Source of the DNA: a virus
Lineage: Duplodnaviria > Caudoviricetes
Virus record (IMG/VR): IMGVR_UViG_3300032260_000018
Span: 1 to 29,026 of that record
Strand: one strand, 5' to 3'
DNA length: 29,026 nucleotides
Position 1 is the stretch's first letter; each line of letters opens with the position of its first letter. Of the stretch, positions 2-7,920 are shown piece after piece. A model generated the notes under the pieces. The model was not told the origin of the DNA. It saw only the letters and a program-made list of their open reading frames with translations, and did not search any database. A program made the position numbers and the translations under genes.

Positions 2-124
2 CCCACTGATGACTATTACATTCCTGAAGGCTGGTATGAAGAAACTTGGGAAGGCGAAGTGTTATATGAAATTACTGGCGATGTTGTTGGATGGGCACCG
101 CAACCAATTTTTACTGCCAGATAA
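2..124 (+). CDS. C-terminal part of a DUF551-like small phage protein (5' truncated by the window edge)
   Basis: Frame 2 reads PTDDYYIPEGWYEETWEGEVLYEITGDVVGWAPQPIFTAR*. The 'YIPEGWYE...V.GW.P.P' pattern resembles DUF551 C-termini. The stop lies in TAAC (122-125). Not in the ORF track. Confidence 0.6.
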   Translation, partial: PTDDYYIPEGWYEETWEGEVLYEITGDVVGWAPQPIFTAR

Positions 125-208
125 CATTGCAAATGAGATGTAGCCAACACTGAAATTAACTTAAAAACCGCAAAGCTTTCGCGGTCTTTTCGATTTGCTT
201 TATTATAC
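119..208 (-). mobile_element. attC-like recombination site 1 (degenerate)
   Basis: AGATAAC-ATTGC-AAATGAGA ... TTTC-G-ATTTGC-TTT-ATTATAC. Imperfect inverted repeat with an extra G in the right arm and an internal hairpin ACCGC/GCGGT. Confidence 0.6.
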
Positions 209-221
209 GACGGTGATAGCA

Positions 222-518
222 ATGACGGCGTGGAACAGAGCGTTTAAAGACGACTATGTAGAGCCAAGCCCTATTAGTAATAATGATATGGCTAAAGTTC
301 TAGAGTGCGAACTAAAACCATCCTGCGGGCTAAAAACCTGGAATGATGTATTTCTTAATGGCGTATATCTTGGAATGGTTAGAACAAAGCTTGGCGGGAA
401 TCATGAGTACAGACTGAGCCGTAACGACTCCCCGGTTTATTGTGGGCAAATAGGTAATACCGGAGACCCAAAGCATGCCAGGGCAATACTGGCCTTACGT
501 ATAAAGCTAGTCGTATAA
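222..518 (+). CDS. Hypothetical cassette-borne protein (start uncertain: TTG195, ATG222 or later)
   Basis: ORF track 195..518. The stop TAA lies within GTATAAC (513-519). Confidence 0.55.
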   Translation: MTAWNRAFKDDYVEPSPISNNDMAKVLECELKPSCGLKTWNDVFLNGVYLGMVRTKLGGNHEYRLSRNDSPVYCGQIGNTGDPKHARAILALRIKLVV

Positions 519-644
519 CGATTTAAATCACCTGCTTGCGGGTGATGAAATGAACTGTTGCAAATAATGCAATAGTTGGACGAAGAGAAGAAATTTAACT
601 CACGCACCGCAGTAGCAAGTCAGCGTGGATTTTGATGGTTATAC
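513..644 (-). mobile_element. attC-like recombination site 2
   Basis: GTATAAC GATTT AAATCAC CTG CTTGC ... GCAAG T CAG C GTG G ATT TTGATG GTTATAC. Perfect 7-bp outer cores and paired inner arms with three unpaired bases (T, C, G) on the right arm. Confidence 0.8.
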
Positions 645-646
645 AT

Positions 647-675
647 AAAAAAGGCCAGCGCTCTAGCTGACCTTT
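647..675 (-). terminator. Intrinsic terminator-like hairpin acting on minus-strand transcripts
   Basis: AAAAAAGGCCAGC-GCTCTA-GCTGACCTTT. On the minus strand this is a stem followed by U6. Confidence 0.5.
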
Positions 676-766
676 AGGTGGGCAAATACAGAATACTTCC
701 CCGGTGTGAGAGATTTAATATTACACCAAAGATAAAAAGCTGGCAATTATTGTAAATGGAGGAATT

Positions 767-937
767 ATGGCAAAAGCACAACGAGATTTGAAAGTTCATT
801 TAACGCTAACAGAAGAAGAGGCAATTGATATATATATTCACCTAAACCCCAAATACCATCCGAACAAGACAGAAGAGATAAAGACTGCGATTAAAGATGC
901 ACTTGGCTACGAGCCAATTGAGGCACCAGATGTATAA
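767..937 (+). CDS. Small hypothetical cassette protein, 56 aa (MAKAQRDLKVHLTLTEEEAIDIYIHLNPKYHPNKTEEIKTAIKDALGYEPIEAPDV)
   Basis: Strong GGAGG SD just upstream of ATG767. The stop lies within GTATAAC (932-938). Below the ORF-track length cutoff. Confidence 0.75.
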   Translation: MAKAQRDLKVHLTLTEEEAIDIYIHLNPKYHPNKTEEIKTAIKDALGYEPIEAPDV

Positions 938-1055
938 CGTTGTAAATAACCTGACCACGGGTAATGGAATAAGGAGCTGAATAGCATGAATACAACCACA
1001 AATATTGCAAACAACCACCGCTTTAGCTGGTCTGCGTTGAAATGCATGGTTATAC
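932..1055 (-). mobile_element. attC-like recombination site 3 (contains the SD and start codon of the next gene)
   Basis: GTATAAC GTTGT AAATAAC CTG ACCA ... TGGT CTG C GTT GAAA TGCATG GTTATAC. Same spacing as site 2. AAGGAG and ATG986 lie in the loop. Confidence 0.75.
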
Positions 1056-1552
1056 ACCGTAAACGCGAGGTTTTGATTGCCGCTGGTGTTACCGTGCTGG
1101 CTATTTTTATAGGGGTTGGATTTAACTCCAAAATACATGAGACAGCCCAATGCTCTGCGCTATCAACCATAAAAATGATTGCAAATTACTCTGAAACAAC
1201 TACCGCCATAGATATGGAAGGCAATCCGTATATTGATACTGATTACTGGACTGAAGATGCCTCTAATACCTATTACGTTGAAATGCTCAACCTTGATGTT
1301 ATTAAATCAAATATAGCCCACACAATGAGCGGGAACATAGCGGTACCTATAGGTGAATTTCAGTACGATGAAACAATGAAGCGTGATCGGCATTTTGATA
1401 GTTTTAGTGTTAACAGGAATTCAGAAATACACCAGTCTTTTGCCGATGGTGAATACGTGAGTATTAAGCCAAGCCAGTACGAAGAATGTTTTTTAAACAT
1501 CGGAAGCATGGTTGAGGTTAAGTACTGGTACCAATTCGCCTACGGTGTATAA
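986..1552 (+). CDS. Hypothetical membrane-anchored protein (cassette-borne)
   Basis: 188 aa with an AAGGAG SD and one hydrophobic segment (VLIAAGVTVLAIFIGVGF). The stop lies within GTATAAC (1547-1553). Confidence 0.75.
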   Translation: MNTTTNIANNHRFSWSALKCMVIHRKREVLIAAGVTVLAIFIGVGFNSKIHETAQCSALSTIKMIANYSETTTAIDMEGNPYIDTDYWTEDASNTYYVEMLNLDVIKSNIAHTMSGNIAVPIGEFQYDETMKRDRHFDSFSVNRNSEIHQSFADGEYVSIKPSQYEECFLNIGSMVEVKYWYQFAYGV

Positions 1553-1645
1553 CAGGGGCTAGACATAACAAGGAACAACAATAGGGGGATGGCTGACAAA
1601 TGGACTCGGCATTATATTCGTGCAGCGGGGGTAGTTGAATTAAAA

Positions 1646-1723: not shown

Positions 1724-4285
1724 ATGCCAAGTAACTTAGAGTTCGTCAACGCTATCTTTGGGAAAGACGCACCTTGGTGCCATGTTACGGATTTCCAATA
1801 TGACCCACTTAACATACCTGATGACAAAAGACACATCGCATGGGGTGGGGACTACTTTAGTCGTTACACTCTCACTCCTGACACCAACCAGTACTTCACC
1901 ATCTCATGCTTCTATGCAGACGACACCGGAAAGGCTCGCCGCCGAAAGGCGTTATATCGGCACACTCCTTGCATAGTGCTTGATGACGTGCGTGAGAAAT
2001 TGTGTGAAGAACAAGTTAAGAAGCTTCCCTCACCAAGTTGGATCTTAGAGACCTCACCAGGGAGTGAGCAGTGGGGATACATCCTAGCTGAACCATGCAC
2101 AGACCGTGCCAGGGTTGAGAACCTGCTTGACGGTCTGGTAGCCAACGGCCTGGCTCCTGGTGGCCGCGACCCAGGCATGAAGGGTGTGACACGCTACGTC
2201 AGGCTGCCAGATGGTGTGAACACCAAAGCCAGTAAGATGGTGGACGGTCAGCCGTTCAAGTGCCGTATGCTGCTGTGGGAGCCGTTCAGACGCACCACAA
2301 TGGAAACACTTGCTGCACCGTTTGCAGTTGACCTGGACAAACCCCGCCGTGAGCAGTGTGTCGATGGTGCAGCAGATATCCCCGACCACCCCTTGCTGCA
2401 GATCCCTGACACTATTCACATTAAGGAGGTGCGTTCTGATGGACGATTCGACATTACTTGCCCGTGGGTTGAAGAACATACGGGAGCTGATAACAGCGGT
2501 TCAGCGATCTTTACCAACGAAGACGGAAGTATTGGGTTTAAGTGTCATCATGGTGCTTGTCAGTCTCGTACTGGTCGTGACTTATTTCAATTTATAGAGG
2601 GTGAGAAACCTGGTTTCGGTTCTAAGTTCGCATCCTGGCGCGGTCTTAGAGCGTTAGCACCGGTGAGTACGTTAAATTTTTATGGACCTGGCGAGGCGCA
2701 AGCCTCGTCTCCCACCAGTGACATCCAACAAAAGGATTGTGAACCACAGGATGTCGCCTCCGCCGGACTTGACCAACTCCTCAACCAGCTCCGACAAGTT
2801 AACCCTTCCTCAGCTGACGCTCGATCAACAGCGTCAACTCTCCTGCAACTGGTGGATTCTCTACCGGCGATAGAGAAGAAGCACTGGCATGATCAAGTCT
2901 GTGACATCATGCACTGGAGTAAAGCAGACTTTAAACCCATACTTAGAGAGCTGCGTGAGCAGTGGTATCAGAAAACAAAAACAGCAGACTGGTACAATGA
3001 CTTCGTTTATCTACGAGAACAGAACCTCTTCTACAACTTCAAAACCTACATCTTTTTCACCCCTGAAGGATTTCAAAACTCCTACGCTGATAAAGAGACA
3101 GAAGCAAGGAAAGAGGCGTTGCAAGCGGGTCGAGTCAAGAAGGTGGACAAGCTCGACTTCGCACCAAAGCAACCCCGATACTTCACCGACGCGGGTATTG
3201 ACTACGCCAACGCATGGTCACCGGATGATGAGATTGCAAGCACTCAAGGTGATGTCACCCGCTGGTTGAGTCACTGGGATGCCATGGGGTGGGGTGAGTA
3301 TCGTGACCACATGCTGAAGTTCATGGCGTACACCATCCTGCACCCGGACGTTAAGATCAACCACATGCTGATGTTAGGTGGAGGTGAGGGCTGCGGTAAA
3401 GATTTCCTGCTCTACCCGCTCACCATGGCTATGGGGCGCAACAGCACCACTATTGACGGTGAAGAGCTGTTGACGGACTACCGGGGGTATCTGCTATCAA
3501 CCAAACACCTCCACATCAATGAGGCAGAGCTTGGCACCCGTCAAGAGGCCGTTGCCATCAGTAACAAGCTCAAACCCCTGGCTGCGGCACCACCGGACAC
3601 ACTGAGAGTGAATGAGAAGTTCATGAAGGCGGTGAAAATACGGAACATAGTCAACTGCACCATGACCACCAACAGTCAGCTCCCGGTGCGTCTGAACGGC
3701 CCCAGTCGCCGCATCTATGCCATGTGGTCTCATCTCAACATACGAGGTGAAGATGGTAACGTTACGGCCGAATGGCAGCGCTACTGGCGTGAAAGCTGGG
3801 AGTGGATGAAGAGTGAGGGCGCTGCAGCTTGCGTGTGGTACTTGCGAAACTGCGTGGATATCAGCAACTTCAACCCTGGTGCCCCACCCCCCATGACTGA
3901 GTTCCTGCGTGAGATACAGGAAGCCTCCAAGTCACCGGCTCAGGTTACTATAGAAGAGTTCATCCGCAAGCGAGTGTTCCAGTGTGACCTACTCACTGCT
4001 GCTGATATGTCAGCTGTGTTACGCGCTGCTGAGTTGAGTAGTGAGTTGAGGAACCTGATGTCCATGGAGCCAAGCTGGTTCACACCCACCAGAGTAGGTC
4101 AGGTGCTGCGAGAGATGCCTCAGTGCAGGCAGGTGAAGGCGTACAAGAGTCGATACTCCATGCGTGTCTGGATCCTACGTGATGTGGTTAAGTATGAGGA
4201 GCTGGGGTGTGGGGCCAGGCTGGTTGAGGAGTACGATCGCCAGCAAAAGGAAATAAAAAAGGGAAATTCCATCAGGGCGGTTTAA
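1724..4285 (+). CDS. Primase-helicase: RepB-type primase domain, Zn finger and DUF5906/NrS-1-like helicase
   Basis: Motifs CIVLDDV and PSWILETSPGSEQWGYIL (RepB-like primase), CPW..EH...CHHGAC (Zn ribbon), Walker A GGEGCGKD, LHINE (Walker B-like) and TTNS...SRR. Confidence 0.85.
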   Translation: MPSNLEFVNAIFGKDAPWCHVTDFQYDPLNIPDDKRHIAWGGDYFSRYTLTPDTNQYFTISCFYADDTGKARRRKALYRHTPCIVLDDVREKLCEEQVKKLPSPSWILETSPGSEQWGYILAEPCTDRARVENLLDGLVANGLAPGGRDPGMKGVTRYVRLPDGVNTKASKMVDGQPFKCRMLLWEPFRRTTMETLAAPFAVDLDKPRREQCVDGAADIPDHPLLQIPDTIHIKEVRSDGRFDITCPWVEEHTGADNSGSAIFTNEDGSIGFKCHHGACQSRTGRDLFQFIEGEKPGFGSKFASWRGLRALAPVSTLNFYGPGEAQASSPTSDIQQKDCEPQDVASAGLDQLLNQLRQVNPSSADARSTASTLLQLVDSLPAIEKKHWHDQVCDIMHWSKADFKPILRELREQWYQKTKTADWYNDFVYLREQNLFYNFKTYIFFTPEGFQNSYADKETEARKEALQAGRVKKVDKLDFAPKQPRYFTDAGIDYANAWSPDDEIASTQGDVTRWLSHWDAMGWGEYRDHMLKFMAYTILHPDVKINHMLMLGGGEGCGKDFLLYPLTMAMGRNSTTIDGEELLTDYRGYLLSTKHLHINEAELGTRQEAVAISNKLKPLAAAPPDTLRVNEKFMKAVKIRNIVNCTMTTNSQLPVRLNGPSRRIYAMWSHLNIRGEDGNVTAEWQRYWRESWEWMKSEGAAACVWYLRNCVDISNFNPGAPPPMTEFLREIQEASKSPAQVTIEEFIRKRVFQCDLLTAADMSAVLRAAELSSELRNLMSMEPSWFTPTRVGQVLREMPQCRQVKAYKSRYSMRVWILRDVVKYEELGCGARLVEEYDRQQKEIKKGNSIRAV

Positions 4286-4332: not shown

Positions 4333-4985
<653 letters not shown>

Positions 4986-4989
<4 letters not shown>

Positions 4990-5137: not shown

Positions 5138-5141
<4 letters not shown>
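4986..5141 (-). CDS. Small putative DNA-binding (RHH-like) protein, 51 aa (MSRPTAPLQHRKEPYNTRLPRWLCEWLRERENAAVTIEEALIKQHNLERPE)
   Basis: ATGA overlaps with both neighbouring genes. The 'RP...K.P.N.RLP.WL.EWL.......IEEAL' pattern fits a beta-strand followed by two helices. Absent from the ORF track. Confidence 0.7.
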
Positions 5142-5826
<685 letters not shown>

Positions 5827-5830
<4 letters not shown>

Positions 5831-7516: not shown

Positions 7517-7780
7517 CTACGCGAAAAAGCCGCGCATAGCCTTGGTGTCGTAAATAACAGCAATGTCGAGGATTTTGTTTTGCAGTGTTTTGTCTGACTG
7601 TTCGAGGGCAAAATCAACCAAATAGCCAGATTTGAAGCGGAGCACACGCTGGTGTGCCTGCCATGCGGTGGGGTAGCGTCCTAAATAGCGACGCATGTTG
7701 TGAATTGATACTCGTGTTTCATACTTACCATTGTTGTAATAGACACTATCAAACTCTATTTTGAGGAAAGGGGTGCGCAT
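7517..7780 (-). CDS. AP2-like DNA-binding domain protein (likely start ATG7780)
   Basis: 'SVYYNNGKYETRVSIHNMRRYLGRYPTAWQAH' fits the AP2 pattern 'GV......W.A.I......YLG.F.T...A'. GGAG lies upstream of ATG7780. Confidence 0.55.
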   Translation of the reverse strand: MRTPFLKIEFDSVYYNNGKYETRVSIHNMRRYLGRYPTAWQAHQRVLRFKSGYLVDFALEQSDKTLQNKILDIAVIYDTKAMRGFFA

Positions 7781-7884
7781 GTGGTGTGCTCCAGTTGAGC
7801 CAGTAAGAGAGTGGAGCGGCAGAACGGTTACTAAGGTCGTCTTTTCGGTAATGAGCCTAGCCGCTCCTCTGACCCTAGCACACA

Positions 7885-7920
7885 TAGCACAAGTCAGCTA
7901 CATAGTGTATTATTTACACT
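7885..7920 (+). promoter_or_regulatory. Putative promoter for terS with an overlapping palindromic operator
   Basis: TAGCAC-17-TATTAT, 7 nt before ATG7921. AGTGTA-N5-TACACT at 7904-7920. Confidence 0.5.

Follow-up and report, generated by a model that had tools for sequence, protein, structure and literature searches.

A row of short genes separated by hairpins occupies the beginning of a virus contig, and the hairpins resemble the attC sites of integrons. The locus raises three connected questions: which strand of the hairpins would recombine, which hairpin belongs to which gene, and where translation of the genes begins. A sequence-only reading of this DNA had proposed a distinct architecture, in which the genes run antisense to the canonical attC orientation, the coding strand is the recombinogenic strand, and the sites carry the translation signals.

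Genome setting and layout of the array

The window, i.e., the whole stretch of 29,026 nucleotides that was analysed, is an entire record (G000), a linear virus contig with an estimated completeness of 64%. The contig is podovirus-like and encodes a primase-helicase, a terminase, and head and short-tail proteins; its primase is 50–56% identical to those of several Vibrio podoviruses. The array spans positions 119–1564, in the first 1.6 kb and upstream of the primase. Its region has a G+C content of 0.41–0.43, versus 0.52 in the primase gene.

Three attC-type hairpins lie within 1 kb, at 119–208 (decayed; the first site implied by the earlier reading), 513–644, and 932–1055. GTATAAC is found at 513, 932, and 1547, and GTTATAC at 638 and 1049. 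The open reading frames (ORFs) 222–518, 767–937, and 986–1552 each terminate at the TAA within a GTATAAC; the truncated ORF 2–124 terminates within the AGATAAC at 119. The features are as follows.

2–124, plus strand: 3' part of an upstream cassette gene truncated where the contig begins; the 5' box of site 1 contains its stop TAA (122–124)
119–208, plus strand: site 1, decayed attC-type hairpin, 90 nt, AGATAAC ... ATTATAC; predicted crossover between 124 and 125
222–518, plus strand: cassette gene 1, encoding 98 aa without a family assignment; terminates within the 5' box of site 2
513–644, plus strand: site 2, best-preserved attC-type hairpin, 132 nt; predicted crossover between 518 and 519
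650–675, minus strand: terminator-like hairpin and T-run at the head of cassette 2, from a consensus scan only
767–937, plus strand: cassette gene 2, encoding 56 aa without a family assignment; Shine-Dalgarno sequence (SD) GGAGG of its own at 758–762; terminates within the 5' box of site 3
932–1055, plus strand: site 3, attC-type hairpin of a 124-nt family; predicted crossover between 937 and 938
986–1552, plus strand: cassette gene 3, encoding 188 aa, or 168 aa if read from ATG1046; terminates within the terminal box
1547–1564, plus strand: attI-like simple site GTATAAC-AGGGG-CTAGAC, no hairpin; predicted crossover between 1552 and 1553
1724–4285, plus strand: primase-helicase gene, 853 aa; the fixed neighbour of the array, sitting where intI lies in an integron

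Searches with the array itself found little. Positions 1–1750 had no blastn match among named phages, exact patterns of the window's own hairpin arms matched 0 viral contigs, Rfam gave no match at the three sites, and no RNA holder of the array region was found among the matches listed.

Elsewhere in the window, the minus strand at 7800–7867 resembles the int-alpA RNA (35.0 bits, just below the gathering threshold of 35.8) and overlaps the start of an HNH-like ORF (7517–7885). Two proteins with long Ala-rich repeats and with Imm5-like and DUF7666 matches are encoded at 4333–4989 and 5138–5830 on the minus strand.

Hairpin structure and strand polarity

In site 2 the outer boxes GTATAAC and GTTATAC pair, and the arm AAAT-CAC-CTG-CTTGC pairs with GCAAG-T-CAG-C-GTG-G-ATTT. 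As a result, T620, C624, and G628 are left unpaired, all on the 3' arm of the plus strand. In site 3, C1035 and G1039 are unpaired. Thus the extra bases do sit on the right arm of the coding strand, as had been claimed. Both sites have boxes complementary at 7/7 positions with conserved AAC and GTT, and an L-box stem with two or three extrahelical bases on one arm, of which the first is a G (G628/C624/T620 and G1039/C1035). The 3' box of site 1 has ATT where GTT is expected, and the loop of this site contains a terminator-like hairpin (163–189).

In a canonical attC site the extrahelical bases lie on the R''-L'' arm; according to PMC2727003, the first is a conserved bottom-strand G that sets strand choice, and moving this first bulge switches the recombining strand. 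Cleavage lies in the 5'-AAC-3' of the bottom strand (PMC5027507). Since the extrahelical bases here are on an arm of the plus strand, by these rules the plus strand would be the bottom strand. We infer from the IntI rules of both papers, together with the cross-check on phage PH101 described below, that the coding strand is the recombining strand.

Two scoring schemes point the same way. A recombining-strand score of our own design, written after the sites were seen and checked on a set of bacterial IntI loci, gives 11.5 on plus vs 8 on minus for site 1, 15.5 vs 9.5 for site 2, and 11.5 vs 5.5 for site 3. Dinucleotide shuffles of 1–1750 gave a site as good as 513–644 in 0/2000 cases and two sites scoring at least 11 in 2/2000. 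The other is a covariance model, likewise our own and distinct from the IntegronFinder model, built from 47 bacterial attC top strands (Gammaproteobacteria). It matches site 2 on the minus strand with exact ends (22.2 bits, E=0.0002), and also site 1 (11.9 bits, E=0.07) and site 3 (5.4 bits, E=2.8) on that strand with exact ends; only the site 2 match is significant on its own. None of its 11 matches falls on the plus strand at the three sites; better scores on that strand would have spoken against the earlier reading. The sites are not fully canonical in their spacing: the first bulge is at position 17 (9/9 nt from box to bulge) instead of the canonical 16, and of the 163 bacterial sites compared, 5 have 9/9 spacing and 144 have 8/8.

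The sites differ in their capacity to fold. The probability of the recombinogenic fold on the plus strand is 0.39 for site 2, which is above the phage median, and 0.012 for site 3, whose minimum-energy fold differs from the attC hairpin and which as RNA folds no better than shuffles. For site 1 it is 0.004 on plus vs 0.1 on minus. With site 1 decayed and site 3 folding weakly, the array is probably partly fixed. Across the site family, the hairpin is maintained as a structure: twelve long sites keep the stem through compensatory changes, with 91% of cells paired (24–41% in slid controls), and two-sided changes occur at 10 of 15 stem pairs. The three sites are more like phage sites (68–73%) than the bacterial set (57–66%), and site 1 is 70% alike to an 87-nt site in the viral locus L031. 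A fourth hairpin at 1547–1655 was considered and ruled out, as it folds at −3.5 kcal/mol with a best partner score of 9.5.

The attI-like end and the junction at position 126

The last gene is followed not by a hairpin but by GTATAAC-AGGGG-CTAGAC. From its likeness to attI and its position, the stretch 1547–1564 may be read as an attI-like site that closes the gene row on its 3' side. The motif TAAC-5 nt-(C/A)TAG(A/G)C ends arrays in viral loci L030 and L031 and twice in L032, each time following a box complementary to the 3' box of the preceding site. TAAC-N5-CTA(G/T)AC occurs once in the 29-kb window. Of 80 bacterial IntI loci, 12 contain it, several of these at the intI-facing end of the array. 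No Pc directed into the genes from the attI side is present: the cassette genes point towards attI, and the minus-strand promoter-like site there, at 1749–1721, is followed by a terminator-like site at 1692–1675.

Sequence data from run X1, possibly the source of the window, contain a variant of the array. One contig covers 1–126 and stops there, with a depth of 60 as against 11.6 on the primase side. A single contig continues from 126, one base past the AAC of site 1, into CTGTTTAGACAGGACTATGC, an attI-family sequence that replaces the site 1 hairpin. It follows that the DNA upstream of site 1 is not always joined to the hairpin after it. In the same run, an arm resembling that of site 3 is fused at 1052 to a different sequence. 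Taken together, bulge position, the bacterial covariance model, the downstream attI-like site, and the junction at 126 are four independent lines in favour of the inverted architecture that had been proposed.

The region around the attI-like end has further signals. The promoter-like site 1749–1721 reads TTGACG-17-CATAAT with a TG, and an RNA of ~50 nt from it would be antisense to the primase leader. This leader has an SD and then a 7-codon ORF at ATG1711 that overlaps the primase start; L001, a related phage, has a similar A-run, hairpin, and extra ATG ahead of its primase. The terminator-like hairpins at 163–189, 650–675, and 1675–1692 all carry the T-run on the minus strand and would stop transcripts that run antisense through the cassette genes. 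In 1–1800, 8 terminator-like hairpins were found vs 1.7 expected.

Inverted arrays in phages and the bacterial comparison

The phage loci compared were chosen with window-like patterns. Among them is the closest primase relative, L001 (64%), with ten scored sites in a row after the primase; L005 has three. Relaxed patterns added 32 viral loci, many of them without arrays. From the stop-in-box count on, the set comprises 106 phage sites, after dropping repeats (L015, the same contig as L045, and L038 and L042, which repeat sites of L035 and L034), single isolated matches (L008, L016, L043), and the published controls L019–L023. The bacterial controls are the best 80 of 579 confirmed IntI loci, Gammaproteobacteria only, with 163 sites. 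Our scanner put 160/163 of these sites on the expected (intI) strand and calls the published TJE1 and V. anguillarum arrays canonical.

At 69 of the 106 phage sites, the box of the recombining strand contains the stop of an ORF of at least 45 codons, and at 16 the box of the other strand does; for bacteria the counts are 9/163 and 62/163, respectively. When the seed sites are removed (n=90), 49 sites have such a stop on the recombining strand only, 5 on the other only, 10 on both, and 26 on neither. In five phage loci, 50/50 covariance-model matches fit the inverted polarity of their array. The inverted layout thus recurs in related phages. A link of orientation to replication direction, raised in the sequence-only reading, is unsupported: the two arrays of L029 point away from each other, and in each of them the genes lie on the recombining strand. 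Polarity therefore goes with the direction of the genes and not with one contig strand. Orientation by longest ORF (60/78 phage cassettes inverted, with L015/L045 counted twice, and 10/101 bacterial ones) was dropped as too noisy for short genes.

Long inverted arrays are present in L033 (7126–16421, 21 scored sites), L029 (21–9947, 16 scored sites), and L001 (2888–6560, 10 scored sites). The position of the array relative to the primase varies between related phages.

The boxes bear on how the units were formed. In the window, the boxes flanking the same gene are complementary at 7/7 positions for genes 2 and 3 and at 6/7 for gene 1. At the four variable box positions, the letters behind a gene are complementary to those in front of it in 46/65 phage and 67/76 bacterial cassettes, vs 1/65 and 7/76 for the letters of one and the same hairpin. 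Judged from these letters, complementarity across the gene is a mark of units that were once circular; it does not give the position of the crossover. Nor did two other comparisons assign hairpins to genes: the one homologous cassette pair among 85 gave no indication of which hairpin travels with the gene, and the downstream flanks of near-identical sites are no more alike than the upstream ones.

Translation signals within the sites

In site 3, AAGGAG (971–976) and ATG986 lie in the loop, and 70 nt (~23 codons) of the frame are within the site, in agreement with the sequence-only reading. The arrangement belongs to the whole ~124-nt family: SD and ATG are at site position 54–55 (ATG986 is position 55), and they recur there in L027, L029, L030, and L031 ahead of different genes. 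The ATG frames of the family read through the 3' arm and give N-termini like MN...NKHRSSGSALKC.V. An in-site ATG that stays open for at least 30 codons past the site is present on the recombining strand of 24/31 long phage sites (21 with an SD), vs 3/31 on the other strand, 4/74 in short phage sites, and 2/91 in long bacterial sites; the count leaves out one opposite-strand match in L033.

The other genes of the array begin outside their hairpins. Gene 2 starts at ATG767, 122 nt past site 2, with its own GGAGG, and no open frame leads from the loop of site 2 into it. Gene 1 most likely starts at ATG222 (GGTG at 212–215); the alternative is an in-frame TTG195 inside site 1. Thus the claim that gene starts are embedded in the sites is right for gene 3 and not for gene 2 or, most likely, gene 1. 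Likewise, that the site carries the translation signals describes the long sites of relatives and one of three genes here, but not the architecture as a whole, given the short sites.

Even for gene 3 there is a second candidate. ATG1046, which has no SD, overlaps the 3' box of site 3 and is inside the site. The 15 best of 95 homologues are 0–7 residues longer than the form that starts there. As these aligned homologues begin near ATG1046, ATG986 may be unused. Either the site adds ~20 residues to the gene 3 protein, or translation begins at the box.

Cassette genes and their products

Genes 1 and 2 were assigned to no family, and protein, phage, and Atlas searches found no relative of gene 1. 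Gene 3 encodes a product with a hydrophobic N-terminal helix and a beta-rich domain with two conserved Cys. It is a predicted membrane-anchored, beta-rich protein, and its structural model is confident (mean pLDDT 89.8). There was no Pfam, PHROG, or PDB match, and the model matched no solved fold. Its homologues come from a T4-like Pseudomonas phage and from metagenome contigs, and gene 3 is a member of this family of unnamed phage-type accessory proteins. None of eight homologue loci has a flanking attC site beside the gene (L129, apparently the window's own contig, is omitted from this count). The boxes of cassette 3 coincide with the first and last codons of the homologues.

The recombinase

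No match to PF00589 (tyrosine recombinase) was found in this contig, which is 64% complete, and no intI lies next to the attI-like site. Among other records, PF00589 matches occur in 3/19, and in 0/6 complete array-bearing relatives. Non-IntI tyrosine recombinases are present in 2 array-bearing records. One of 24 records, L034, encodes an IntI above the cut-off (TIGR02249, 308 bits against 265). It lies downstream of an inverted array and its terminal box, all on one strand. L034 thus has normal integron geometry with the genes alone reversed.

The stretch 111–3465 of L034 is a complete integron on a viral contig, with the terminal box near 2423 and IntI at 2485–3465. About 100 nt at the start of that contig repeat the bases just ahead of its site 1512.

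Phage PH101 provides the cross-check on strand. It has four sites on the strand of its annotated genes gp132–135. As reported in PMC9892861, two PH101 sites recombined with attI1 via IntI1, one strand better than the other; by our check, the better strand is the one that bears the genes. IntI acting in trans would, by analogy, be the most likely mechanism for the present array. The PH101/H101 cluster (L020, 30919–32986; NC_029094, 75.9–78.0 kb) also has duplicated blocks of site plus leader.

Proposed mechanism and alternative explanations

We read the locus as a phage cassette array in which genes lie on the bulge-bearing strand and move together with their upstream hairpin by the action of a trans-supplied IntI, and we put the probability of this reading at roughly two in three. 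An integron integrase, likely from the host or a co-infecting phage, would act on the folded coding strand and cut between AA and C, directly past each stop codon. Each gene would move with the hairpin ahead of it, in units 125–518, 519–937, and 938–1552. New cassettes would enter between 1552 and 1553, at the downstream end of the gene row, and with entry at that site the newest gene would be last, not first. In long sites the SD and ATG of the loop, in frame through the 3' arm, would supply a start wherever the cassette lands; short sites are followed by an ordinary SD.

The same inverted layout could be moved by a different agent, either an Xer-like phage tyrosine recombinase or annealing of similar hairpins. 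Such a mover would suit the 9/8 and 9/9 spacing, which dominates the phage sites (81/106, partly set by our own search patterns) and is rare in bacteria, and the non-IntI recombinases of the two array-bearing records. However, the six complete relatives have no PF00589 protein, the sole recombinase right behind a terminal box is an IntI, and the box letters switch exactly at AAC, unlike the outcome of homologous recombination; we think this explanation unlikely. The array might also be a fossil of past cassette capture, with hairpins that are now at most RNA elements (start sites, terminators). Its worn state fits: site 1 is without GTT, site 2 without a loop frame, and site 3 folds weakly, while there is no integrase in cis and no rearranged joint within 1–2400 among the run X1 joints listed. 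An intact, foldable site 2, a conserved terminal site, and the variant junction at 126 argue the other way and make a mere fossil rather improbable. It would in any case bear on present activity, not on the inverted origin.

Two further explanations dispense with inversion as a property of the phage array. If polarity were ordinary, each gene would own the hairpin behind it, crossover would fall between G and TT of the 3' box, and the bulges would be on an unusual arm. Stops in RYYTAAC boxes are typical of canonical cassettes too (the 62/163 bacterial sites above), the box-complement test cannot separate the two crossovers, and top strands do recombine at low frequency (PMC5027507). Against this stand the attI-like site, with no hairpin, behind the last gene, the strand switch caused by moving the first bulge (PMC2727003), the agreement of covariance model and scanner that minus is the top strand, and the junction at 126, which together render ordinary polarity highly improbable. 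Least credible is a captured piece of a host chromosomal integron with reverse-oriented cassettes. Such cassettes exist (10/101 bacterial ones scored reversed), Vibrio prophages capture host integron pieces (PMC9892861), and the G+C of the array is below that of the primase gene. But all four genes are reversed here and the layout recurs in many phages; moreover, the sites are nearer to phage than to bacterial ones, and gene 3 homologues occur in a T4-like phage and in unannotated contigs, with an attC context in none of the eight loci.

Relation to known systems

The locus is a real, small, and partly decayed example of a reversed-gene integron cassette array. It would work like an integron array and departs from the canonical layout of cassettes, but falls under the CALIN definition (at least two attC on the same strand in a 4-kb stretch and no intI in the vicinity), with the qualification that the contig lacks the DNA to the left of base 1. 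It shares with integron arrays, the sedentary chromosomal ones of Vibrionales in particular, the AAC/GTT boxes, the L box, G and T-type extrahelical bases, box complementarity across a cassette's own gene, and an attI-like simple site with a 5-nt spacer; in L034, IntI is also in the normal position relative to site polarity. In contrast to them, the genes are on the predicted recombining strand with the hairpin ahead of its gene, the attI-like site is at the 3' end of the gene row, long sites contain SD and ATG, the spacer is one base longer, and the contig has no intI.

Phage attC clusters have already been published: Qi et al. 2023 (PMC9892861) describe CALINs, attC clusters without an integrase, in lytic phages. 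The attC1 of PH101 has the G, C, T bulge pattern of site 2, with genes on the recombining strand by our own check; the TJE1 array of the same paper is canonical, unlike the one here. The text of that paper is silent on gene-versus-site polarity, a downstream attI, and in-site starts, while its figures or annotation may draw ORF strands. We found no description of gene-inverted cassette arrays in phages in the literature covered, mostly non-subscription journals. In Treponema-type inverted-integrase integrons, intI and the cassette genes can be co-directional, too (PMC4889954); there intI is flipped relative to attC, whereas in the present array and in L034 it is the genes, not intI, that are flipped. 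Recombination sites that give translation signals have a precedent in ORF-11 and ORF-17 of attI1 and in short attC ORFs (PMC8876359). These are separate top-strand short peptides that work by translational coupling (PMC8876359), unlike the present SD and ATG, which lie on the opposite strand and share the reading frame of the gene.

Biological implications

The choice of attC strand is thought to make genes face Pc (PMC5027507). An array class with all genes reversed, no Pc, and entry at the far end would combine the same chemistry with a different expression logic. It would keep the phage cassette pool apart from that of the host, because a phage cassette that entered a host attI would have its gene antisense to Pc, and lytic phages would gain site-specific swapping of accessory genes without a recombinase of their own. 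Calling ORFs on the top strand, or dropping ORFs that overlap attC by more than 50 nt (PMC7370490), would miss these ORFs.

For the question of cassette genesis, a gene with sharp cassette borders whose homologues are free-standing is informative. A tentative extension, which we hold possible though doubtful, is that phages maintain a cassette pool of their own with borrowed integron integrases. The long hairpin would then be a portable module for recombination and translation start, joined in frame to ordinary phage genes that provide the crossover through their TAA, and gene 3 would be such a graft. If this is true of gene 3, it would offer a direct handle on how cassettes are made.
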